Sequence record: NC_100327.1
Direction: 5' to 3' (one strand)
Length of the DNA: 64,000 bases
Source: a phage
Shown one piece after another: positions 1-60,035 of this stretch. The notes below the pieces were generated by a model, which saw only the letters and a program-made list of their open reading frames with translations, made no database searches and was not told the DNA's origin. The first letter of the stretch is position 1. Each line of letters starts with the position of its first letter. The translations under genes were made by a program, and so were the position numbers.

Positions 1-923
1 AACGAGGCTTCCGGATAGATCTTGACCTCACCACAGACACAGTCCTCACTCAGTGTCATTGTTGCCGGACCATAATATGCACCTACCAGCAGTCCATACT
101 TACCAGCTACATAGCTGAGATCTGCACCACAAGCTTTCAGCATTTCTGCCATAATACTTGCTGGGGCCTCATCCATATCGAACTCGCCATTAATGGTGTA
201 ACGGCGCTCACTGGTTCCGTCTGCGTTTTTTACCGCCTCGTCGCATATGTTGGCAGCCTCCTTGAAGGACTCCCAGTTGATGGTTTCGTCAGGACATTTA
301 AGGTACGTTCTTAAATAGTCTAGGATCACCAAGGCAGCGTTATTGGTGTACACCTCTTTACTGATACGAGGATCATAGCATTTTTTACCAATCTTGACGA
401 GTGTAACGTTTGGCAACCCAAAAGGAAACTTGTTAGGGTCAAACCTGAAGCTGGCACGTAGCCAACTGATCCCTCTACCTATCATGTCAGGTGACCATGA
501 TGGGCAGTGTGTACCCATGAAAGGATCAGATGTTTTTCTGTCGTTATGTAGCTCCCACGATACCAGATCTCCATACGAGGAAATAGGATTACCGTCGATA
601 AGTATATCTTCTATACCTTCCAGAGGGTGATTGGCAAGAACAATAGCACAATGGAGGGTTCTGTCGCTATCCTGCTCCAAAAACGCAAGCAATCCAGATG
701 TGCGTGTCTTTCCATACACTACAGAGCAAGGTGCAGCAGAAGATCTGAGAAGCTTTTGTCTATCTTGCTGACTTCTGTAAGATTTGTTGCCCTCAAAAAT
801 CTTATCCAAAGTTCTGGTGGTCACAGTGTTCAGGCTGTCAGCCAGAGCTGCCTTGGATGCGTTCCAGTCATAACTTGAAGATCTTGCAGAAGCAACGATG
901 TTATCAATCATTGCAATTGGCAT
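1..923 (-). CDS. large tail/baseplate structural protein, N-terminal part (3' end lies beyond the window start)
   Basis: ATG at 923-921 preceded by GGAGG-type RBS; minus-strand frame appears open to position 1 on manual translation; only short, junk-like plus-strand ORFs in the track here; last gene of the tail module. Confidence 0.45.
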   Translation of the reverse strand, partial: MPIAMIDNIVASARSSSYDWNASKAALADSLNTVTTRTLDKIFEGNKSYRSQQDRQKLLRSSAAPCSVVYGKTRTSGLLAFLEQDSDRTLHCAIVLANHPLEGIEDILIDGNPISSYGDLVSWELHNDRKTSDPFMGTHCPSWSPDMIGRGISWLRASFRFDPNKFPFGLPNVTLVKIGKKCYDPRISKEVYTNNAALVILDYLRTYLKCPDETINWESFKEAANICDEAVKNADGTSERRYTINGEFDMDEAPASIMAEMLKACGADLSYVAGKYGLLVGAYYGPATMTLSEDCVCGEVKIYPEAS

Positions 924-1360: not shown

Positions 1361-1914
1361 ATGATCGGGCGGCTCGCCACCTGATCCACATATTTAAAAA
1401 ATCTGTCATTATCGTTTCTTGAGCTGTGGCTTTCCTCCGTGTACCGATAAGGAAAACCTCTTAACCAACTGTTGAAGATGGAAGAGATGGATATGGACAA
1501 AGCACTATTCTCACCTGTCTGAATAGCCATATCTGTTATAAGGCCGTCAAACAAGCCATTAGTTGTGACAGGTAGACCATTCTCCATAGCGGTAATGTAC
1601 AACGTGGCACGACAACCAGAATACTCCGTCTTCAGCAGATCACCCACATACTTAGGATCAAACCCGTTCAATGTTGCTACCACAGATCCGAAGTTGGTGG
1701 CATCTTTCTCAGACACAGCAGTTAATGTTGCTGATCCCCCTATCCCTATAAAATGTTGCCCCTCAATTACTACAACACCAGTGCCTGAGCACACCCTGAC
1801 AGTTCCTGTCGGTAGCTCCAGCTTTGCAGCAATTAAGATCTCAACACCATCAAGCTCCAGCTTTTCAAGAAATAAATTATCTAATGGCGCTCTGATCATC
1901 TTAGAAATCCTCAA
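1348..1914 (-). CDS. hypothetical virion/tail protein
   Basis: 188-aa ORF overlapping its neighbours in the minus-strand structural operon. Confidence 0.35.
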   Translation of the reverse strand: MRISKMIRAPLDNLFLEKLELDGVEILIAAKLELPTGTVRVCSGTGVVVIEGQHFIGIGGSATLTAVSEKDATNFGSVVATLNGFDPKYVGDLLKTEYSGCRATLYITAMENGLPVTTNGLFDGLITDMAIQTGENSALSISISSIFNSWLRGFPYRYTEESHSSRNDNDRFFKYVDQVASRPIIWEV

Positions 1915-2491
1915 AGAAGTTGATAACTATATTATCCCCTTTTTGCATAGCATCGACTTTTTGCTTAATTTTATAAATATCTCTGATATGAAACCTACCC
2001 TTCGGGGATTGAGTTATTATCTTCATAGTGTCCCCTGCGGCAATAGGTTTTCTAAGTCTTGGAGATATGCTTATAACAGCAGACCCAACACCATCGCTAC
2101 GCACTGGAGCTGTTACCACTTTCAATTCATCATTGACAGATATTTTATCCCCAGCTCTGGCTATGTCTCTGTTTGGCTCCCACCCAACCGTCTTCAAAAA
2201 ATCGTCGTTACCAGTAGGCCCAAGGGCGATTGGCTCATTAGCTGTAACTGAGTGACCGTAAGTTTTAATAAGAAAGATGTTTCCATCTTTATACACCTGA
2301 TCAACAAAGCTCTTAAGCTCTAACAACTGTGACTCGCTGATATTAGAGACCGTCAAAGTGCCTTTCCAATTAGGTGTGGCATAGGTTACTTTTTGCGTTT
2401 TACCTGTAAACGGACTTTTAAACGTAACAATATCTGCCAGCAGCTCCAATCTAATATCTGGAAGGTATCTAGGCCTTTCCCATAAAAACAT
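1901..2491 (-). CDS. hypothetical protein, possibly tail fibre assembly
   Basis: 196-aa ORF immediately downstream of the large fibre gene; position only. Confidence 0.3.
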   Translation of the reverse strand: MFLWERPRYLPDIRLELLADIVTFKSPFTGKTQKVTYATPNWKGTLTVSNISESQLLELKSFVDQVYKDGNIFLIKTYGHSVTANEPIALGPTGNDDFLKTVGWEPNRDIARAGDKISVNDELKVVTAPVRSDGVGSAVISISPRLRKPIAAGDTMKIITQSPKGRFHIRDIYKIKQKVDAMQKGDNIVINFFEDF

Positions 2492-51800: not shown

Positions 51801-54112
51801 TCACCAAGGTAATTAAAAGCAACGGATGTGAAGTGGCATTCGATCCAGAACGTTTAAATAAGGCAGCTATTTTCGGTGACGACGGTAACGGCAATTGGTC
51901 ACATATTGCACTGGATGCATACAAACGACTGTATGATGGATGTACAACCAAAGAAGTTAACCAAGCTATCATAGACTCCTGTGTTAGCCGTAAAGACGAA
52001 GCACATTCCCGTATGGCTGGTCGTGTTCTTATTGGTCAGATTTATAAAGAGGCTTTTGGAGGGTTTACAAAGATCCCTTCCTTACCATCATTTTACAACG
52101 ACATGGTTGAGAAAGGGTATTGGGAGGATATGGGATATAGCTTTACCGAGCTAAACACTTTAGACGCTGTTATTGACCACAGTAAAGATCTCGGTTATGG
52201 CTATGCAGTCCTTAAACAGTTTCGCGACAAATACGGGATCAAGGATACTCTTAAAGACACCTTGTTTGAATCTCCCCAGATGATGTTTATGGGGATAGCA
52301 ATGGCTGTCATGAAGAATATGCCGAAAGAACGTCGTATCAACGATGTTGTAAAATTATACACTTATCTGTCCGACTTAAAGATCAATGCCCCGACACCGT
52401 ACTTAAACGGGCTGCGCACAGGTAAGACAGGGTATGCATCTTGTTGTGTAATAAAAGCTGACGATACAGCAAAATCTATTGGTGTGGCACGTGAAGTTGC
52501 GTACACAATGACGGTTAACCAAGCAGGTATCGGCTACTATTTATCATCAAGATCTGCAGGTGATGGTGTTCGCGGTAACACTATTAAACACATGGGTAAG
52601 ATTCCATATTATCGAGGTATTGATGCTGGTGTTAAGGAGAACAGACAACAATCACGTGGCGGTTCTGCAACAGTATCATTCCTTGCACTGGACCCGCAGA
52701 TTGATGAGCTAATCCGTTTGAGAAACCCTATGACTGTTGCTTCAAAAAGAATCAACACCATGGACTACTCCATCGGTATTAATAGGTCGTTTATCAACCG
52801 TGTGGCTAAGAATTTAGATTGGATGCTTGTTTCTTATAAGCACGCTCCTCAACTGCATGAGGGTATCTTCACCATGTCTATGGAGGAGTTCGATGCAGAG
52901 GTTGAGCGTATTGCTAAAGATGACAGTATTCCTAAGACATGGATCCGGGCTAGAGATCTTGCTGTTGAGCTGATCACGCAGCGTACTGAGGTGGGAAGGC
53001 TGTACGTATACTGGACAGATGAGATGAATAGACATACACCTTTTAAAGATGTGATCTATTCAAGCAACCTGTGTGCAGAAATAGCCCTCCCGACAAAAGG
53101 CTATTCAGATATGCGTAATATCTTCAAGTACGATGTTGATGATGGTGAGGTTGCATTGTGCTTCCTGTCATCTCTTGTAGCTGGAAGGGTTACCCCAGAG
53201 GAGTATGAGGATGTTGCATACTACACGGTGCTTATGATTGACAATGTTATGGAAATCATGACATATCCGTATGAAAACATGGAGAGTACTGTTAAAAAAC
53301 GCAGATCCATCGGGGTTGGCCTTACCAATGTTGCACATTTTATTGCCAGCCACAAGGTTACTTACGGATCTCCTGAAAGTAAACAGCTTGTTCACGATCT
53401 TGCAGAACTTCACAGCTACAGCTTGCATAAGGCAAGTTTACGGTTGGCAAAAGAGCGTGGTGTCTGCGAGTGGATGTATAAAACAAAATATCCAGAAGGT
53501 TGGTTACCAATCGACACTTATAACAAAGAGGTCGATAGTGTGGTGAAAGATCCTTCTCTTAAACAGGATTGGGAAGGGTTACGTAAAGAAATCATTGAAA
53601 ATGGTGGGCTACGTAATAGCGTTCTTGAAGCATATATGCCTAATGAAAGCTCTTCGCTGGCAACAAACACCACTAACGGGGTTTATCCTGTCCGTGAGCA
53701 CATTATCTTTAAAAAGTCGCCACAAGGGCAGGTGCTGTTTATCGTTCCTGAATACGATGAGTTGAAAGAGTATTACACTTCGGCTTGGGACGTTGATACT
53801 AACGACATGATCGATATGTATGCTGTGATTCAAAAATTCACAGGTCAGGCAATCAGCGCGGATTTATACATAGACTACACCAAGTTGAAAGATGGTAAAA
53901 TTTCAATGAAGGAGCAGCTAGGGTACCTTATCCGTGCCACTAAATTCGGGATGAAGACATGGTATTATTTAAACTCTAGGGTTGGTGCTGGTGACTCCTT
54001 GGCAGAGGAACTTCATGCCAAGAAACAGGCTGAAGATGAAACCAGAAAGAACTATCCTTTGATTGCAGATAGTTCAGTTGAAGATCCGTATTGCGAAAGC
54101 TGTGCACTATAA
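51797..54112 (+). CDS. nrdA: ribonucleotide reductase class I alpha subunit NrdA
   Basis: 771 aa; N-terminal ATP-cone-like region; active-site block SNLCAEIALP. Confidence 0.85.
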   Translation: MITKVIKSNGCEVAFDPERLNKAAIFGDDGNGNWSHIALDAYKRLYDGCTTKEVNQAIIDSCVSRKDEAHSRMAGRVLIGQIYKEAFGGFTKIPSLPSFYNDMVEKGYWEDMGYSFTELNTLDAVIDHSKDLGYGYAVLKQFRDKYGIKDTLKDTLFESPQMMFMGIAMAVMKNMPKERRINDVVKLYTYLSDLKINAPTPYLNGLRTGKTGYASCCVIKADDTAKSIGVAREVAYTMTVNQAGIGYYLSSRSAGDGVRGNTIKHMGKIPYYRGIDAGVKENRQQSRGGSATVSFLALDPQIDELIRLRNPMTVASKRINTMDYSIGINRSFINRVAKNLDWMLVSYKHAPQLHEGIFTMSMEEFDAEVERIAKDDSIPKTWIRARDLAVELITQRTEVGRLYVYWTDEMNRHTPFKDVIYSSNLCAEIALPTKGYSDMRNIFKYDVDDGEVALCFLSSLVAGRVTPEEYEDVAYYTVLMIDNVMEIMTYPYENMESTVKKRRSIGVGLTNVAHFIASHKVTYGSPESKQLVHDLAELHSYSLHKASLRLAKERGVCEWMYKTKYPEGWLPIDTYNKEVDSVVKDPSLKQDWEGLRKEIIENGGLRNSVLEAYMPNESSSLATNTTNGVYPVREHIIFKKSPQGQVLFIVPEYDELKEYYTSAWDVDTNDMIDMYAVIQKFTGQAISADLYIDYTKLKDGKISMKEQLGYLIRATKFGMKTWYYLNSRVGAGDSLAEELHAKKQAEDETRKNYPLIADSSVEDPYCESCAL

Positions 54113-54119
54113 TTTTAAA

Positions 54120-54138
54120 GGGGCTTCGGCCCCATTTT
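54120..54138 (+). terminator. intercistronic hairpin / attenuator between nrdA and nrdB
   Basis: ggggc ttcg gcccc hairpin followed by ATTTT. Confidence 0.45.
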
Positions 54139-54150
54139 AGAGGTAGAATA

Positions 54151-55239
54151 ATGGCTGTATTTAATGCTGAGAACACCGCTCATAAAACTGGTGACTATCC
54201 GCTGTTTCTGGGACAGCAAATGGGTATGTACGACTCTATCAACAAAAAATATCCACAACTGTTTGAACTATACAAAAAACAAAAAGAGCAAGATTGGGCA
54301 GAGGATGAAGTGGATTTGTCGCAATCTATTTCAGATTTTGTAACATGCTCAAAGTCAACTTATGACGTGATGGTGCAGACCTTGATGTGGCAATGGGAGG
54401 CTGATAGCGTTGCGGCAAGATCGATCATCTGCCTCTTTTCACCATTCATCACTAATAGTGAGCTTTTCACTCTATTGATGAAACAGTCAGAGATTGAAGT
54501 TCTTCACGCACTAACTTACTCAGAGATTGTTAGACAATGCCTCCCCAATGCCCGTGAGATTATAGAAGAGATTCAGGAAAACCAAAACGTTCTGAGCAGA
54601 TCTGGCGTTATTGTCAAATACATGCAAGAGCTTGAGGATATTGGTGCAAAATACCGACTGGATCCTTCTAGTGTTGAAGAAGATATTGTGCGGAAATGCA
54701 TTCTTAGAGCGCTTTTTGCACTTTTAGCCCTGGAAAGTATTGAGTTTATTGCAAGTTTTGCATGCACTTTCGCAGTAGCTGAACAGGGTATTTTTGTTCA
54801 GGTGGCGCAGCTTGTTCAAAAAATCATGCTTGACGAAATGCTACATTCGAAAGGTGATTTTGCCATCATTGATATCTTGCTTAACGATCCCGCATGGGAG
54901 AAAAGCTTCCTGGAGATAAAAGGGGAGTTAAAAGAGATTCTTGATGAAGTACGAACCAAAGAGTACGGTTGGAGTGACTATATTTTCAGCGAAGGAAGAG
55001 CGATTATAGGTCTTAACTCACCGTTGCTTAAAGAATGGGTTGACTATAACTGTTCACCGATTTATGATTACTACGACATCGACAAAGACTTTGTGCCGCC
55101 AACAAAGGACCCGCTACCGTTTATGCAGGTGTGGATGAAACCTTCATTGCAACAGACGGCGAACCAAGAAATGTCGAACACTGACTACCGCGTCAACACA
55201 ACTGTTAACGACGCTGAAGAAGAAATTTGGGAGTTTTAA
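54151..55239 (+). CDS. nrdB: ribonucleotide reductase class I beta subunit NrdB
   Basis: Start at ATG 54151 with GAGG RBS (track start is an upstream TTG); ~360 aa immediately after nrdA. Confidence 0.75.
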   Translation: MAVFNAENTAHKTGDYPLFLGQQMGMYDSINKKYPQLFELYKKQKEQDWAEDEVDLSQSISDFVTCSKSTYDVMVQTLMWQWEADSVAARSIICLFSPFITNSELFTLLMKQSEIEVLHALTYSEIVRQCLPNAREIIEEIQENQNVLSRSGVIVKYMQELEDIGAKYRLDPSSVEEDIVRKCILRALFALLALESIEFIASFACTFAVAEQGIFVQVAQLVQKIMLDEMLHSKGDFAIIDILLNDPAWEKSFLEIKGELKEILDEVRTKEYGWSDYIFSEGRAIIGLNSPLLKEWVDYNCSPIYDYYDIDKDFVPPTKDPLPFMQVWMKPSLQQTANQEMSNTDYRVNTTVNDAEEEIWEF

Positions 55240-55242
55240 TAT

Positions 55243-55521
55243 ATGAGCTGCGAAAAATCTTTTTTCATCATCATTTACGGTAAGGATAACTGCCCACATT
55301 GTGTCAGAGCAAAAGAATTTGCAATCAGCAAAGGTCTGCCTTTTGTATATAAGACACTTGGCGAGGGATACACAAAAGAAGAGCTTATTGAGAAGTGTAG
55401 TCCAATCGTCCCCAGAACGTTGCCGCAGATCTTCTTAGAAAGCGATCTTGACAGTATCCATATAGGCGGTGCCGACGATTTCATCTCTTTTGTTAAGAAT
55501 GGTTTTGGAGAGAAAAAGTGA
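55243..55521 (+). CDS. glutaredoxin (NrdH/Grx-like)
   Basis: 92 aa with CPHC active site (YGKDNCPHCVRAKEF). Confidence 0.7.
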   Translation: MSCEKSFFIIIYGKDNCPHCVRAKEFAISKGLPFVYKTLGEGYTKEELIEKCSPIVPRTLPQIFLESDLDSIHIGGADDFISFVKNGFGEKK

Positions 55522-57641
55522 AAGTTGTAAAACGGGACGGTAGAGAAGAGTTCTATAACGGAATTAAGGTGATCAAGGCGGCAGAGTCCGCCTTACTTGA
55601 GTCTGGACATACTGAAGAAGAAGCTTACCGGATCGCTTGTGCGGTTAATGAAGTTGTTGCTAACAATCTACCAACCGACCAGTGCACGATCTCTGTAAAA
55701 AATATCCATATCCTTGTTGAAGATGCTCTTATGGATATGGGTTTAAAATGTGCAGCCAGAGAATACATCCAGTATAGACAGACAAGAGATAATAACAGAG
55801 AGGCAGGTGGAAAACTGCTTGCAGATATTAGTGGCTTCTTGGATCGAACTTGTGATGAATTTACAAAAGAAAACGCAAATAAGCCTACCAATCATGTACA
55901 CACTCATCGTGACCTGCTTGCAGGCATCCTTAGCAAACACCTTGCATCAACACAGATCCTGCCAGACCGTGTCTCAGAAGAGCACAATAAAGGCTTCATC
56001 CATGTGCATGATCTTGACTACTTGATCAGTCCGTTAACAAACTGTTGTTTGGTAAATTATCCAGATATGTTGGAAAACGGATTCAACATTGGTAACGCCC
56101 ATGTCAGTAAGCCGAAGTCAATAGGGGTTGCAACAACAATCCTTAGCCAAATCTCTAGTGCGGTAGCTAGTGCTCAATATGGGGGTCAGACTATGAGCCA
56201 TATTGATCATTATCTGGCACAGTATGCTGAGGCGACTTATGAGAAGAACCTTAAATTTTGCCAGGAACATTGGTTGCCAGATGCTGAGACTGTTGCAATG
56301 CAGATGACAGATAAAGACGTATTTGACAGCATGCAGACTTTACTCTATCAAATCAATACGTTAACTTCTGTCAACGGGCAAACCCCATTCATCACATTAA
56401 GTTTAGGTCTGGACACCTCAGTCTTTGGTAGAATGATTACCAAAAACTACTTGAAAGTCCACAAAATGGGTCTTGGTGAAGAACGTATCACACCTGTGTT
56501 CCCTAAAGTGTTGTTCTTCCTAGAAGAGGGTGTCAACATGAACCCTGGAGATCCTAACTATGATTTGAAACGATTAGCTCTGGAATGCTCTGCAGAGCGG
56601 ATTTATCCTGACTTTGTTTCTGTTCCACTAAATCGTAAAGTGACAGGCTCGACAGATGGTAAAGTAACGAGCATGGGTTGCCGGAGTTTTCTTAGCAAAT
56701 ACAATGACTTGGAAACAGGCGAGGAGAAATACCTTGGCAGATTTAACTTAGGCGTTGTTAGCCTTAATCTGCCAATGATTGCGGCAAAAGCTAAAACGGA
56801 AGGTGTTGATTTCTTTGCAGTTCTTGACGAATACCTAGATCTTGCATACGAGGCTCACCTTGTAAGGGTTGATCGTCTAAAAGGGACAAAGGCAGGGCAG
56901 AACCCTATCATGTGGTGTGAAGGCGCTCTTGCTCGCCTGGGCCCTGAAGAGAGTATTGATAAACTCTTCTACGACGGGTACGCTTCCATCAGTATTGGGT
57001 ATATTGGTGTGTATGAAACCTGTCAGATTTTGGGCAGGGAGGGTGACAAGGCTTTAGCTCTTGGAATACTTCAGCACATGAGAGATGCTTGTGAGAGATA
57101 CAAGAAGGAAAGTAGACTAGCGTTTAGCTTGTACGGCACCCCTTCTGAGAGTCTATGCTATAAAGCTGCAACCTGTCTGGATCGTGAATATCCTGAAGTG
57201 TTGAAGCACGAGCATGAATATCTCACCAACAGTTTCCATCAGCCAGTATGGATCAATAGCTCTCCTTTTGATAAGTGGGAGTATGAGGAAGGTTTTGCTA
57301 TGATCTCCTCTGGTGGCAACATCGGATACGTAGAGACACCAAATCTGAAAAACAACTTAGATGCTTTGGAAGCTCTTGTTGATTTCGGATATAAACACAT
57401 TATGTATTTTGGTATCAACCAGCCTGTGGATAAATGTCTCAAGTGTGGTTTCTCTGGTGAGTTCAGTGCAACAGCTAAAGGCTTTGTATGCCCAGAGTGT
57501 GGAAACCATGAAGAGGGAACGATCAGCGTAATTCGACGTGTGTCTGGATACCTTTCCAGTCCTAACTCTCGTCCTTACAATAAAGGTAAGCAAGCGGAAG
57601 TTATCGAGCGAGTTAAGCACTACGGAAGTTGTGGTTGCTGA
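55518..57641 (+). CDS. nrdD: anaerobic ribonucleoside-triphosphate reductase NrdD
   Basis: 707 aa; C-terminal zinc ribbon (CLKCGF...CPECG) and glycyl-radical motif RRVSGY. Confidence 0.85.
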   Translation: MKVVKRDGREEFYNGIKVIKAAESALLESGHTEEEAYRIACAVNEVVANNLPTDQCTISVKNIHILVEDALMDMGLKCAAREYIQYRQTRDNNREAGGKLLADISGFLDRTCDEFTKENANKPTNHVHTHRDLLAGILSKHLASTQILPDRVSEEHNKGFIHVHDLDYLISPLTNCCLVNYPDMLENGFNIGNAHVSKPKSIGVATTILSQISSAVASAQYGGQTMSHIDHYLAQYAEATYEKNLKFCQEHWLPDAETVAMQMTDKDVFDSMQTLLYQINTLTSVNGQTPFITLSLGLDTSVFGRMITKNYLKVHKMGLGEERITPVFPKVLFFLEEGVNMNPGDPNYDLKRLALECSAERIYPDFVSVPLNRKVTGSTDGKVTSMGCRSFLSKYNDLETGEEKYLGRFNLGVVSLNLPMIAAKAKTEGVDFFAVLDEYLDLAYEAHLVRVDRLKGTKAGQNPIMWCEGALARLGPEESIDKLFYDGYASISIGYIGVYETCQILGREGDKALALGILQHMRDACERYKKESRLAFSLYGTPSESLCYKAATCLDREYPEVLKHEHEYLTNSFHQPVWINSSPFDKWEYEEGFAMISSGGNIGYVETPNLKNNLDALEALVDFGYKHIMYFGINQPVDKCLKCGFSGEFSATAKGFVCPECGNHEEGTISVIRRVSGYLSSPNSRPYNKGKQAEVIERVKHYGSCGC

Positions 57642-57710
57642 TACTTGACAAAAGCCACAAGGATGTGGCATATTATTGACACACAGTGAGCTAGGAGTAG
57701 GAGGTGCAGT

Positions 57711-57827
57711 ATGTCTACAGGTATTTATAAAATTTGCAAGTGCGGCTGTCATTGCAATCTTCGTTGGTGCAAGGCACTGGACGATTTTATTTGGCATTGC
57801 CCTGAATGCGATGCGGAGTACTTATAA
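57711..57827 (+). CDS. small Cys-rich (zinc-ribbon-like) protein, 38 aa
   Basis: ATG 7 nt after AGGAGG; MSTGIYKICKCGCHCNLRWCKALDDFIWHCPECDAEYL; not in the ORF track because it is short. Confidence 0.35.
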   Translation: MSTGIYKICKCGCHCNLRWCKALDDFIWHCPECDAEYL

Positions 57828-57978
57828 GCATAAGGGGTCGAAATGCGGAAATCTATCAAGAAAATCAAGATAAAATTGTTAGCACTGAAGCGTAAGTATA
57901 AAAAGTTATACGGCTTCATCAAATGGACTTTTATAAGTTTATCTTGAATAGAAGCACACCACAGAAGAGAGGTTCCTT

Positions 57979-58215
57979 ATGATAGGTGTCTGTGTAAAAG
58001 CTAACAGATGGTTTACATTCGGTAAGGATTACGAAATTATCTTTCATTCGGACAGAGCCACAACAGTAGAAAGTAATGATGGGTGCTACTGGTTCGTTAG
58101 TTACCAGGGTGATGGGTATTATAGATCTACTGATTCCAGAGGGGAAGAAGCTGTTTTCTTAGATAGAGCTTATTGTGGGCCTGAATATCCCTATCTCAAA
58201 GAGGGTAAGGCATGA
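57979..58215 (+). CDS. hypothetical protein
   Basis: 78-aa ORF coupled to nrdG. Confidence 0.3.
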   Translation: MIGVCVKANRWFTFGKDYEIIFHSDRATTVESNDGCYWFVSYQGDGYYRSTDSRGEEAVFLDRAYCGPEYPYLKEGKA

Positions 58216-58685
58216 ATGTTGTCAATATTATAGAGTGTAGCATGGTTGACGGCCCAGGTATCAGGACAACAGTGTTCTGTTCTGGTTGTCCACATCACTG
58301 CGTCGGTTGCCAAAACAAAAGTGTTTGGTCCCCCGCTAAAGGGGAACCGTTAACAAATGACACAATCGAGAGCATACTTAGCTCTATAGAACCAAACCAT
58401 ATTACCGGCGTTACATTATGCGGTGGAGAGCCTTTAGCACCTTACAATATTGATGGTATGTATTCAATCATTTGCGCTATCCGTGAACGCTTCGGCAACA
58501 CAAAAACTATCTGGGTGTACACAGGGTATTTGTTTGAAGAAGTCCCCGATTACATTAAAGATAGTGTTGATTACATTATGGACGGTAAGTACGAAAAAGA
58601 TAACCCCACCAAAAAACCCTTTAGAGGCAGTGATAACCAAAGAATGTTTAAAAAGGTAGCAGATGGTTGGGTTCAGGTTGACTAA
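58212..58685 (+). CDS. nrdG: anaerobic ribonucleotide reductase activating protein NrdG (radical SAM)
   Basis: Cys cluster CSGCPHHCVGC near the N-terminus; ~157 aa; adjacent to nrdD. Confidence 0.75.
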   Translation: MNVVNIIECSMVDGPGIRTTVFCSGCPHHCVGCQNKSVWSPAKGEPLTNDTIESILSSIEPNHITGVTLCGGEPLAPYNIDGMYSIICAIRERFGNTKTIWVYTGYLFEEVPDYIKDSVDYIMDGKYEKDNPTKKPFRGSDNQRMFKKVADGWVQVD

Positions 58686-58688
58686 TCG

Positions 58689-58718
58689 TTGACAAAGCTT
58701 TGTTAAGTCGGTTATAAT
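58689..58718 (+). promoter_or_regulatory. sigma70-like promoter candidate
   Basis: TTGACA (58689-58694), 18-nt spacer, TATAAT (58713-58718). Confidence 0.55.
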
Positions 58719-58747
58719 TGTCGTAATGAAAGCAGAGGAGGTGCCAA

Positions 58748-58861
58748 ATGGCTAAAAAAGCCTTGAAGAAGGCGTACAAGAAAGAGATTGCGCTTGAGCT
58801 TAAGAAAAAACACAAGCGTGAAAATAAACATCATGAAGATGAAGAGGGGGTGCAACAGTGA
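58748..58861 (+). CDS. small basic protein, 37 aa
   Basis: ATG after GAGGAGG RBS and a consensus promoter; MAKKALKKAYKKEIALELKKKHKRENKHHEDEEGVQQ. Confidence 0.35.
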   Translation: MAKKALKKAYKKEIALELKKKHKRENKHHEDEEGVQQ

Positions 58862-59208
58862 CACAAGAACGTATCGATTTGGCTAATAAGTTTGTAGATC
58901 TCATTTTGCCACGGTTAGTTACTCAACATGCAGATGCTATTTCTACTAATCTTGATGGCTTACGCCTAATGCTGAATCGCACAGATGACCCTCGTATTCG
59001 GGCTGATTTAGAAGCCTCTGCCAACAAACTGGAAAAGTTCTTGCAAGTAGACACGCAAGAAGCCTTGCACAAGATTATGGTGGAAGGTTTCTCTAAAGAA
59101 TTTACCATTAAAGAGCTTAAGGAGCTGATCCACCAAGAAGAGATGAATATCCGAGTTCAGGCTGTTGCAAGCAGCATGGAAGCGGCTATTGAAAAACTGT
59201 TGCAGTAA
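58858..59208 (+). CDS. hypothetical protein
   Basis: 116-aa ORF with GTG start overlapping the small ORF stop. Confidence 0.3.
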   Translation: MTQERIDLANKFVDLILPRLVTQHADAISTNLDGLRLMLNRTDDPRIRADLEASANKLEKFLQVDTQEALHKIMVEGFSKEFTIKELKELIHQEEMNIRVQAVASSMEAAIEKLLQ

Positions 59209-59246
59209 AAGTACTTGGCACATCTCAATCTGAAAGGAGTCCCAAC

Positions 59247-60035
59247 ATGGGTCGAGCTAAAGAAACAAAACGCATGCGTGATGAAGCTAGAGAGGCTCGC
59301 AAATCTGATCGCCTGCGTAAGGCTGCTGAGAAATTTGCTGACGAAAGAGAGCACACCGCTCCAGCTCTCCGACCAATGAATAAGAAGCAGCAAAAGTATC
59401 TTGATTATCTAGGGTCACGTAAGATTATTATTGTAAACGGTGTGTTTGGATCCGGTAAGACATTTATGGCATCTGCATATGCAGGTGATCTTCTGCGTAA
59501 GAACGAGATTGATAAGATCATTGTTGCACGTCCTTACGTCCAGACAGGAAAGACTTCAGGATTTAAACCCGGAAATGCAATGCAGAAACTGTGGCCCTAT
59601 CTTCGAAGCATGATGGACACGATTTGTCGTCGTGTTGGCAAAGGTGCTTTTACCGCAATGCTGGGAGACGGTCAGAACAGTCGTATCGAGATTTGTGAAG
59701 TTGAAAGCATTCGTGGTCGTAGTTTCGATGAGCGATGCTTTGTCCTGATTGACGAGGCACAGCAAACTAACCCTGAAGAAATGTTGTCAATTATCACAAG
59801 GATCTCTGATCAAGCCACCCTTGTAATTATGGGTGATAATAGCCAACGTGACATCCCTGGTAAATCTGGCCTCGCATGGGTGACGGATTTCTTTACTCGT
59901 CATCCAGATCCTGAGGTTGGAATGATTAGCTTTGATAGTCCAGACGATGTCGTTCGTTCCGGGTTGGGTCGTCAGATTGCACTCAATCTTATTGAAGATC
60001 GTGCAAATCATATTTGGACCCCTGTTTCCGAGTAA
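59247..60035 (+). CDS. phoH: PhoH-like ATPase
   Basis: Walker A GVFGSGKT, LIDEAQ and IMGDNSQRD blocks in PhoH-like order. Confidence 0.8.
   Translation: MGRAKETKRMRDEAREARKSDRLRKAAEKFADEREHTAPALRPMNKKQQKYLDYLGSRKIIIVNGVFGSGKTFMASAYAGDLLRKNEIDKIIVARPYVQTGKTSGFKPGNAMQKLWPYLRSMMDTICRRVGKGAFTAMLGDGQNSRIEICEVESIRGRSFDERCFVLIDEAQQTNPEEMLSIITRISDQATLVIMGDNSQRDIPGKSGLAWVTDFFTRHPDPEVGMISFDSPDDVVRSGLGRQIALNLIEDRANHIWTPVSE

Follow-up and report, generated by a model that had tools for sequence, protein, structure and literature searches.

Two small conserved genes near nrdD and nrdG of an rV5-like phage: coding evidence, gene modules and public annotation

Organization of the locus

The window analysed comprises a stretch of 64,000 nucleotides of phage DNA (NC_100327.1). 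By its sequence, the source phage is a Vequintavirus, i.e. an rV5-like phage of E. coli, and the region was 99.9% identical to the phages pangalan, CarlMeissner and MaxTheCat. The features of the locus, all located on the plus strand, are listed in Table 1. NrdD is intact. It has a zinc-ribbon motif (CLKC...CPEC) at its C-terminus, together with RRVSGY as the glycyl-radical motif and an additional YGSCGC tail. The sigma-70-like site behind nrdD contains a hairpin, GCCACAAGGATGTGGC (57654-57669), within its spacer, and its sequence is retained in phage EmilHeitz; this element in front of ORF1 may be either a putative internal promoter or an RNA hairpin. An Rfam scan of positions 57400-59300 gave no match to an RNA family.

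Two further ORFs of 34 and 78 aa occupy the gap between nrdD and nrdG. They had been missed by an earlier sequence-only reading of this DNA, as had the overlap between the stop codon of ORF2 and the GTG start codon of p116 (GTGA). The 34-aa ORF is annotated in related phages (rV5 gp110, bas48_0184, LL12_115). It is restricted to the cassette of the window-type lineage and not found in FV3-type genomes.

Table 1. Genes and expression signals between nrdD and p116 (positions in the window)
Feature	Position	Strand	Basis
nrdD, class III (anaerobic) ribonucleotide reductase large subunit, 707 aa	55518..57641	+	ORF list; same annotation in relatives
Sigma-70-like site TTGACA-18-CATATT (10/12, TG-extended), directly 3' of the nrdD stop codon	57645..57674	+	consensus scan
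Shine-Dalgarno sequence of ORF1, AGGAGGT, 5 nt 5' of ATG	57699-57705	+	
ORF1, 38 aa, PHROG 20137	57711..57827	+	
Lys-rich 34-aa ORF with hydrophobic tail (MRKSIKKIKIKLLALKRKYKKLYGFIKWTFISLS), cassette member	57843..57947	+	
78-aa ORF, PHROG 3249, same cassette as the 34-aa ORF; stop codon overlaps the nrdG start	57979..58215	+	
nrdG, radical-SAM activase, 157 aa	58212..58685	+	
Perfect sigma-70 consensus promoter TTGACA-18-TATAAT (P118 of rV5)	58689..58718	+	consensus scan, rV5 record
Shine-Dalgarno sequence of ORF2, GAGGAGGT, 5 nt 5' of ATG	58735-58742	+	
ORF2, 37 aa, PHROG 7670, first cistron 3' of P118	58748..58861	+	
p116, gene for an all-helical 116-aa protein, PHROG 7650, GTG start	58858..59208	+	

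Coding evidence and public annotation

The sequence-only reading had proposed a 38-aa Cys-rich ORF behind an AGGAGG motif between nrdD and nrdG, whose coordinates and Shine-Dalgarno sequence were confirmed, and a Lys-rich 37-aa ORF behind TTGACA-18-TATAAT and a GAGGAGG ribosome-binding site, for which all elements were present. ORF1 and ORF2 carry the only two occurrences of the motif AGGAGGT-N5-ATG in the 64-kb window, compared to an expectation of 0.15 in shuffled sequences, where two or more matches were obtained in 2 of 100 shuffles. A perfect TTGACA-N16-19-TATAAT arrangement was found once (shuffles: 0.10), at the ORF2 promoter, which matches the sigma-70 hexamer consensus at 12 of 12 positions with a spacer of 18 nt. 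This promoter is P118, which was predicted for rV5 (Table S4 of PMC3606486) and has an entry as a feature in NC_011041.

The ORF1 protein, MSTGIYKICKCGCHCNLRWCKALDDFIWHCPECDAEYL, comprises 38 aa, including seven Cys residues (C9, C11, C13, C15, C20, C30 and C33) that are invariant across all 13 variants (13/13), among them forms of 41 aa and 53-54 aa. It matched the profile of PHROG 20137 over its entire length (E 3.1e-30; residues 1-38 versus profile positions 1-38 of 38). In the ORF1 core, pN/pS was 0.093 in frame versus 1.09 and 1.64 out of frame, with a pS of 0.53, a pN of 0.049 and 17 of the 26 variable columns at codon position 3. The high pS, low pN and codon-position-3 bias are the mark of selection on the protein and do not fit simple homogenisation of the DNA. 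ORF2 matched PHROG 7670 (E 1e-19; residues 1-37 versus profile positions 1-37 of 46), and its pN/pS within the genus was 0.087 in frame versus 2.44 and 2.31 out of frame. Lack of conserved reading frames had been named in advance as a result that would speak against the two ORFs; both were found to be conserved in frame, with pN/pS values of ~0.09 as opposed to 1.1-2.4 out of frame. ORF1 and ORF2 are thus most probably (at a probability of roughly 0.8, by our estimate) genuine protein-coding genes of Vequintavirus that have already been catalogued and that form part of separate gene modules. ORF1 was also considered as a read-through extension of nrdD, with which it shares the frame, and this was rejected on account of two in-frame TGA codons between them. 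No transcriptome or ribosome-profiling study of any Vequintavirus was found in the literature; the proteomics of rV5 covers virions only.

The claim that the two ORFs are unannotated did not hold, since GenBank records of near-identical phages list both as CDSs for hypothetical proteins, and both have a PHROG family. ORF1 corresponds to bas48_0185 of CarlMeissner, CPT_LL12_114 (LL12_114) and pangalan_107; these entries and PHROG 20137 represent the same protein at the same position, with 92-100% identity. ORF2 corresponds to bas48_0181 of CarlMeissner, LL12_118, pangalan_104 and rV5 gp113 (ORF 118), and PHROG 7670 and rV5 gp113 with P118 represent the same gene and the same promoter. In some records, the ORF2 homologue is missing from the annotation. 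ORF1 bears the name 'ribonucleotide reductase' in PHROG and, in GenBank, names of the type 'putative anaerobic ribonucleoside-triphosphate reductase'. These names appear to be inherited from neighbouring genes or older records (the note in pangalan cites APCEc02). In our assessment, the label 'ribonucleotide reductase' is unsupported for ORF1, whose similarity to NrdD is a generic zinc-knuckle pattern only. An alternative frame of 65-75 aa over ORF1, called as gp109 in rV5, was rejected as non-coding, with a pN/pS of 1.09 and with nrdG taking the place of the DNA 3' of ORF1 in FV3-type genomes. The gp109 annotation of the rV5 reference follows an incorrect frame across ORF1. With the genes and the promoter already public, the importance of the locus is small, and two conserved phage micro-proteins remain. 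The useful yield lies in the codon-level evidence for both genes, their assignment to separate modules (ORF1 to nrdD-nrdG, ORF2 to the 116-aa gene) and the corrections to the annotation.

Distribution and neighbourhood of the two genes

ORF1 was detected by tblastn in 121 phage records, all of them Vequintavirus-type, and its range comprises only Vequintavirus and one divergent sister lineage; IMG/VR contributed a single related locus. A HMMER profile scan of 1.84 billion representatives yielded no relatives beyond this family, and the sole extra match (P0013, a 248-aa repeat protein, E 7e-4) was judged spurious. ORF1 lay between nrdD and nrdG at every locus inspected. Most commonly, the stop codon of ORF1 and the start codon of nrdG overlap (ATGA or GTGA); this holds for FV3, EmilHeitz and typing phage 14 and for loci L007, L010, L011 and L017. 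In the window lineage, a cassette consisting of the 34-aa ORF, the 78-aa ORF and another nrdG allele starts exactly at the ORF1 stop codon. This allele is ~53% identical to that of most Vequintavirus genomes, and ORF1 has remained unchanged despite the allele swap and the uncoupling from nrdG. Compared to EmilHeitz, the window showed 92% identity for ORF1, 96% for the NrdD C-terminus and 53% for NrdG. Comparison with the divergent lineage L011 gave 51% for PhoH, 34% for p116, 90% for the ORF1 core and 87% for the NrdD C-terminus. Between the window and L011, the similarity of the nrdD 3' end and ORF1 is much higher than that of their flanks, which suggests lateral exchange of this segment.

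Differing endonuclease-type genes reside in the nrdD-ORF1 spacer of typing phage 14 (where the insertion starts directly 3' of the hairpin), WalterGehring, PMBT16, L010 and L017, and many relatives have an nrdD gene that is interrupted by an intron or endonuclease. ORF1 persists 3' of no fewer than four distinct insertions of the endonuclease type, and a Shine-Dalgarno sequence of its own precedes it in all contexts, including those with replaced upstream DNA. Nearly all other nrdD-nrdG systems lack ORF1; Seunavirus (the sister genus), Phapecoctavirus and T4-like phages have nrdD directly abutting or overlapping nrdG. In a metagenomic contig (P0012), a deletion fuses the first 20 residues of ORF1 to the 78-aa ORF, which would mean, provided that the contig is correctly assembled, that loss of ORF1 is possible.

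ORF2 encodes a basic protein (11 Lys, pI 9.7) with a net charge of +9 in its first 27 residues and an acidic tail (net -4). Its homologues form 40 protein clusters, including those of Erwinia phage Hena1, Salmonella phage GEC_vB_MG and Erwinia phage pEa_SNUABM_56. Common to all 40 is the N-terminal motif M-[SA]-K-K-x-L-[RK]-K-A-Y-x-K-E-[LI]-A-[LM]-x-L-[RK], which is conserved across Vequintavirinae and retained even in genera whose neighbouring protein is only 23-31% identical; the C-terminal half is poorly conserved. Across genera, the N-terminal 19 residues gave a pN/pS of 0.37 (pN 0.32, pS 0.89, i.e. saturated). At an identity of at least 90%, the DNA comprising the promoter and ORF2 was found in 119 phage records. 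The promoter is likewise conserved in relatives, with an analogous TTGACA-17-TATGAT sequence in front of the ORF2 homologue of L010/L011.

ORF2 always abuts or overlaps the start of p116 or its homologue, also in Mydovirus, Henunavirus and Seunavirus and in the L010/L011 lineage. The Shine-Dalgarno-like sequence of p116 (GAGGGGG) is situated within the last codons of ORF2. This coupling was seen in genomes with or without nrdD/nrdG, and its constancy assigns ORF2 to the p116 module rather than to nrdG. The description of ORF2 as lying around nrdG does not hold in a functional sense, since ORF2 is present and coupled to p116 in phages that lack nrdD/nrdG. Searches of p116 against Pfam, PDB sequences and Foldseek gave no significant match, so that the ORF2 module comes without a functional anchor in the form of a recognisable fold relative. 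ORF2 was also considered as an amphipathic helix and rejected as such (hydrophobic moment 0.39 versus a shuffled mean of 0.70).

Possible roles and alternative readings

The fold of ORF1 is probably zinc-ribbon-like, although support for this is weak. An AlphaFold model of low confidence (mean pLDDT 63) contains three beta-strands (residues 16-20, 25-30 and 35-37), and its nearest Foldseek matches were zinc ribbons and small zinc-finger proteins, none of them significant (E 1.5 or worse). The best hmmsearch match was likewise non-significant (E 0.18). The zinc ribbon proposed by the sequence-only reading is hence compatible with the three-strand model and the nature of its best matches, but these matches lack significance. 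Of the two knuckles, the second (CP[EK]C) does not vary. As the first, forms of 38 aa have CxC, and those of 41 aa and 53-54 aa have CxxC (CK[DH]C). Zinc-ribbon and rubredoxin-like small proteins, for example small CPxCG-type zinc-finger proteins, ZifS, the Rpb9/TFIIS ribbons and eL43, gave the best, though non-significant, matches both in fold and in sequence; ORF1 has two Cys knuckles, the second of them CPxC, that flank a predicted three-stranded sheet. In contrast to zinc-ribbon and rubredoxin-like proteins, ORF1 has three additional invariant Cys residues (C13, C15 and C20), and the first knuckle in the window is CxC instead of the canonical CxxC. A duplication of the NrdD C-terminal zinc ribbon was rejected as the origin of ORF1: the knuckles align in hhalign, but with a probability of 7.7%.

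That ORF1 keeps strictly to the nrdD-nrdG operon suggests a role linked to this module. In the overlapping arrangement, it would be made together with the activase NrdG, and it would fold as a small metal-binding module of the zinc-ribbon or rubredoxin type (CxC/CxxC...CPxC plus three further Cys). As a plausible speculation, at clearly less than even odds, ORF1 might be a dispensable accessory of the phage anaerobic ribonucleotide reductase that would act more likely via NrdD than via NrdG. Its absence from most nrdD-nrdG systems means that it cannot be a required subunit of the reductase. Action via NrdD is favoured because ORF1 travels together with the nrdD 3' end, and the exchange of NrdG for a 53%-identical protein with ORF1 unchanged argues against a specific contact between ORF1 and NrdG. 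If ORF1 does work with the reductase, the short list of glycyl-radical enzymes with Cys-rich accessory subunits would grow. Such subunits are listed for only three glycyl-radical enzymes, with no ribonucleotide reductase among them (review PMC13450708). HPAD gamma (HpdC), BSS beta/gamma and MASS beta/gamma/delta resemble ORF1 in that they are small and Cys-rich and have their genes next to those of a glycyl-radical enzyme and its activase, and MASS delta is rubredoxin-like, with one Fe on four Cys (review PMC13450708). By analogy, ORF1 could be a seven-Cys Zn- or Fe-binding subunit of the class III reductase that docks on the glycyl-radical/zinc-ribbon region of NrdD or relays electrons to the NrdG cluster. 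We consider this specific proposal improbable; if true, ORF1 would be the first small subunit described for a glycyl-radical enzyme of the ribonucleotide reductase type, analogous to the rubredoxin-like MASS delta. The likeness to these accessory subunits is one of gene context only: ORF1 had no PDB sequence match to known HiPIP-like or rubredoxin-like subunits at E values up to 10, and such subunits were absent among the 50 Foldseek matches listed. For ORF2, its strict coupling to the 116-aa gene likewise points to a module-linked role, and it is conceivable, if doubtful, that the ORF2 and p116 proteins are co-produced and work together.

The sequence-only reading had instead suggested host-takeover factors. 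According to this explanation, both ORFs would be free-standing, a small zinc-ribbon protein and a small basic protein that bind and inhibit host machinery, and would owe their operon positions to an accident of genome packing. The very strong translation signals of both ORFs, the early expression implied by a consensus host-type promoter before ORF2, a possible promoter of ORF1's own, the indifference of ORF1 to the nrdG allele that follows and the narrow taxonomic range of both families, which is typical of phage accessory genes, are consistent with it. Nonetheless, we consider it unlikely. Nothing specifically supports it: neither ORF resembles a characterised takeover protein, and neither matched a Pfam or NCBIfam family or, in a PDB sequence search, a solved structure. 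Moreover, ORF1 is never seen outside the nrdD-nrdG interval, with translational coupling to nrdG in most genomes, and ORF2 is never found apart from a p116 homologue. The traffic of homing endonucleases through the nrdD-ORF1 spacer and the split nrdD genes of many relatives raise another explanation for ORF1, namely that it is a by-product of this traffic (a zinc-finger remnant, a target or a co-conversion tract) whose protein is functionless and which is preserved by repeated gene conversion at an insertion hotspot. The similarity of the nrdD 3' end and ORF1 between the window and L011, which far exceeds that of the flanking genes, would fit this view. It is, however, very unlikely, given that substitutions in ORF1 are predominantly synonymous and mostly at codon position 3, that a Shine-Dalgarno sequence and ATG are re-established before ORF1 in each new upstream context and that ORF1 shows no similarity to the inserted endonucleases.

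We attach hardly any likelihood to the idea that the ORFs are non-functional or purely regulatory, either as chance ORFs or as leader cistrons, with ORF2, for example, serving only to load ribosomes for p116. The overlap of the ORF2 stop codon with the p116 start codon, the position of the p116 Shine-Dalgarno-like sequence and the poor conservation of the ORF2 C-terminal half agree with a leader function, but the amino-acid sequences of both ORFs are under strong purifying selection. A leader peptide would keep its position and be free to vary in its sequence, whereas the N-terminal 19 residues of ORF2 are conserved across genera and its motif has persisted at saturated synonymous change.

Gene order, annotation and expression signals

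The region 57400-59300 matched the Escherichia phages pangalan, CarlMeissner and MaxTheCat at 99.9% identity and rV5 at 97%; these phages are all Vequintavirus myophages of ~137 kb. The elements described in the sequence-only reading, among them the Cys-rich ORF1 (38 aa) and the Lys-rich ORF2 (37 aa), were all recovered where it had placed them. The arrangement AGGAGGT-N5-ATG occurred twice in 64 kb, precisely at the starts of ORF1 and ORF2 (expected 0.15), and the single perfect TTGACA-N16-19-TATAAT promoter of the window was located upstream of ORF2 (expected 0.10). The expression signals of both ORFs are exceptional within the window and unusually strong. A weaker site with a hairpin embedded in it (TTGACA-18-CATATT) was found directly 3' of the nrdD stop and 5' of ORF1.

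The same reading had considered both ORFs unannotated, which did not hold. They are listed as CDSs in public phage records (ORF1: bas48_0185 in CarlMeissner, CPT_LL12_114 in LL12, pangalan_107 in pangalan and many more; ORF2: bas48_0181, CPT_LL12_118, pangalan_104 and rV5 gp113) and match PHROG families (ORF1: 20137, E = 3e-30; ORF2: 7670, E = 1e-19). The ORF2 promoter is annotated as P118 in the rV5 RefSeq record and also appears in the rV5 genome paper (PMC3606486, Table S4). Both ORFs are known hypothetical genes, which comparative analysis now places in their modules with codon-level support. In the rV5 record, a 75-aa product, gp109, is called in another frame over ORF1, overlapping nrdD and gp110; since pN/pS in this frame was ~1.1, without coding constraint, the call is probably wrong and the real gene ORF1. 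PHROG 20137, pangalan_107 and several GenBank records label ORF1 'ribonucleotide reductase' or 'putative anaerobic ribonucleoside-triphosphate reductase', a label that seems inherited from earlier records because homology between ORF1 and NrdD was not detectable. The Vequintavirus region is also present in ~19 records named Campylobacter jejuni phages (MG0656xx; C9, A12a, A140 and others); its 92-99% identity to coliphages there points to mislabelling or to contamination with E. coli phage sequence.

Features of the window and of compared loci
Feature	Sequence	Coordinates	Strand	Remarks
nrdB	window	54091-55239	+	
glutaredoxin gene	window	55243-55521	+	
nrdD	window	55518-57641	+	start overlapped by glutaredoxin gene
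NrdD C-terminus	window	57621-57641		...VKHYGSCGC; tail YGSCGC (YGSCSC in typing phage 14) holds Cys and begins beyond the ends of the L010/L011 proteins (VKHV, VKHFH)
ORF1	window	57711-57827	+	
34-aa ORF	window	57843-57947	+	third micro-ORF; pI 11, Lys-rich, hydrophobic tail; with the 78-aa ORF and window-type nrdG, a cassette starting at the ORF1 stop codon
78-aa ORF	window	57979-58215	+	PHROG 3249
nrdG	window	58212-58685	+	
promoter	window	58689-58718	+	
ORF2	window	58748-58861	+	
p116 (116-aa gene)	window	58858-59208	+	
phoH	window	59247-60035	+	
gp109	L002 (rV5, NC_011041)	1739-1966		
nrdG	L005	2114-2587		~53% identical to the window allele, coexisting in one genus; flanking genes 92-100% identical
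pangalan_107	L016	512-628		
P0012	L018 (ENA metagenome contig)	652-840		62-aa ORF; first 20 ORF1 residues fused to C-terminal part of the 78-aa ORF
ORF2 homologue	L012 (Cronobacter phage EspYZU15)	3475-3615		clear 46-aa homologue directly 3' of the nrdG stop (TAGATG), missing from GenBank annotation
spacer insertions 3' of nrdD	L006; L014; L015; L010; L017	779-1939; 580-1572; 566-1593; 2779-3471; 45-1259		endonuclease-type or unannotated

Coding selection

Homologous segments from nine loci (ORF1) and seven loci (ORF2) were compared by Nei-Gojobori counting. For the gap-free 27-codon core of ORF1, pS was 0.53 and pN 0.049, giving an in-frame pN/pS of 0.093 as opposed to 1.09 and 1.64 in the other frames, with 7/2/17 variable columns at codon positions 1/2/3. 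The corresponding values for ORF2 within Vequintavirus were 0.20, 0.018 and 0.087, as opposed to 2.44 and 2.31, with 1/3/12 variable columns. Low values in frame and high values out of frame place both ORFs under clear purifying selection. The constraint detected in this check of reading-frame conservation, which the sequence-only reading had itself proposed, lends comparative backing to the view that the two small genes are real and expressed; the host-takeover role suggested for them was not supported.

ORF1 and the nrdD-nrdG operon

ORF1 (MSTGIYKICKCGCHCNLRWCKALDDFIWHCPECDAEYL; seven Cys) was detected by tblastn in 121 phage records, each of the Vequintavirus type. Searching 5.8 billion proteins with a profile returned 12 clusters, and when 1.84 billion representatives were scanned in full with HMMER, a spurious repeat protein was the sole match beyond the ORF1 family. 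Natural lengths include 38, 41 and 53-54 aa, with a Lys/Glu-rich N-terminal extension on the longest, and all variants share the core C-K-(x)-C-G-C-x-C-N-L-R-W-C-x-x-L-D-D-[FL]-I-W-[HY]-C-P-x-C-[DG]-A-E-Y-L, including seven invariant Cys.

The gene lay between nrdD and nrdG in all loci inspected; in Phapecoctavirus, T4-like phages and the sister genus Seunavirus, no gene separates nrdD from nrdG, the two abutting or overlapping. The ORF1 stop overlaps the nrdG start (ATGA or GTGA) in FV3, EmilHeitz, typing phage 14, one IMG/VR contig and three Logan contigs. The window lineage departs from this arrangement precisely at the ORF1 stop codon (TTATGA to TTATAA), followed by the 34-aa and 78-aa ORFs, which FV3-type genomes lack, and by an nrdG allele that is 53% identical to the common one and present in only 32 phage records. 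Across the breakpoint, identity is 92% for ORF1 and 96% for the NrdD C-terminus, and the activase gene nrdG looks like a clean allelic replacement.

Insertions recur in the nrdD-ORF1 spacer, a hotspot with differing endonuclease-type genes in typing phage 14, WalterGehring, PMBT16 and the contigs L010 and L017, and after every such insertion ORF1 is kept, preceded by a Shine-Dalgarno sequence. The inserted products include one with DUF723 and HNH matches, one with DUF723 only and one annotated as a putative homing endonuclease; a 386-aa repeat protein in the spacer was read as T5orf172/GIY-YIG-like. An intron/endonuclease splits nrdD in FV3, EmilHeitz, WalterGehring and L010/L011, whereas the window gene is intact. 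In the divergent L010/L011 lineage, the ORF1 core (90% identity to the window) and the NrdD C-terminus (87%) are far more conserved than PhoH (51%) and p116 (34%), so that ORF1 moves together with the nrdD 3' end.

An AlphaFold model of ORF1, based on an 11-sequence family alignment, comprised three beta-strands at low confidence (pLDDT 63). Its best PDB matches, namely 3cng (a NUDIX N-terminal ribbon), ZifS 8yoz and Rpb9, are zinc ribbons and small zinc-finger proteins, and none of them was significant. In profile searches, a CPxCG-type small zinc-finger protein, eL43, L37ae and the DnaJ zinc finger matched below threshold. When ORF1 was aligned with the C-terminal zinc ribbon of NrdD, the knuckles lined up non-significantly (probability 7.7%). 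We infer that ORF1 forms a small module for metal binding, its Cys exceeding by three the four that one site would need. In most cases its translation appears coupled to that of the activase gene, and it was never seen outside the nrdD-nrdG operon.

The mechanism favoured here, with a probability of roughly one in three, is that ORF1 would act as a non-essential metal-binding accessory to the anaerobic reductase. A class III ribonucleotide reductase accessory in the stricter sense, a Zn/Fe subunit docking on NrdD or relaying electrons to NrdG, is the one reading with real upside, if an improbable one. According to a recent review (PMC13450708), no more than three glycyl-radical enzymes have known Cys-rich accessory subunits, such as the rubredoxin-like MASS delta, and none of the three is a ribonucleotide reductase; ORF1 resembles these subunits in gene context alone, and the homology test failed. 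Speaking against an accessory function, most NrdDG systems do without ORF1, the nrdG allele swap leaves it indifferent, and the metagenomic ORF P0012 has lost the second knuckle, being either a natural deletion or an assembly chimera.

ORF2 and its downstream gene

ORF2 (MAKKALKKAYKKEIALELKKKHKRENKHHEDEEGVQQ; 11 Lys, pI 9.7) carries a net charge of +9 in its first 27 and -4 in its last 10 residues, and its N-terminus is not amphipathic. The DNA comprising promoter and ORF2 was present in 119 phage records at at least 90% identity. Homologues beyond the genus were traced via the conserved downstream gene p116 in four other lineages, namely Mydovirus (MSKKALRKAYTKELALELRGKK..., 46 aa), Henunavirus Hena1 (MSKRTLRKAYQKELAMALR..., 49 aa), Seunavirus (46 aa, unannotated in the EspYZU15 record) and L010/L011 (MSKKSRKAKRAYDKEFKLEIK..., 41-44 aa), in all of which they overlap or abut the start of the p116 homologue. 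A profile search returned 40 clusters (37-65 aa) with the N-terminal motif in common, after which come a basic segment and a tail that is acidic or variable.

At the Hena1 and Mydovirus locus, nrdD and nrdG are absent and ORF2 follows the glutaredoxin gene, so that it has no specific tie to nrdG. ORF2 heads an ORF2-p116-(endolysin)-phoH module, with the nrdD-ORF1-nrdG block upstream in some genera. Conservation of the peptide sequence makes a purely regulatory role as a leader ORF unlikely. The p116 protein was modelled as a four-helix protein (pLDDT 83), with no significant relative by family, sequence or fold; joint production and joint action of ORF2 and p116 are a tentative proposal, less likely than not. 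In L010/L011, too, a consensus-like promoter (TTGACA-17-TATGAT) lies upstream of the ORF2 homologue.
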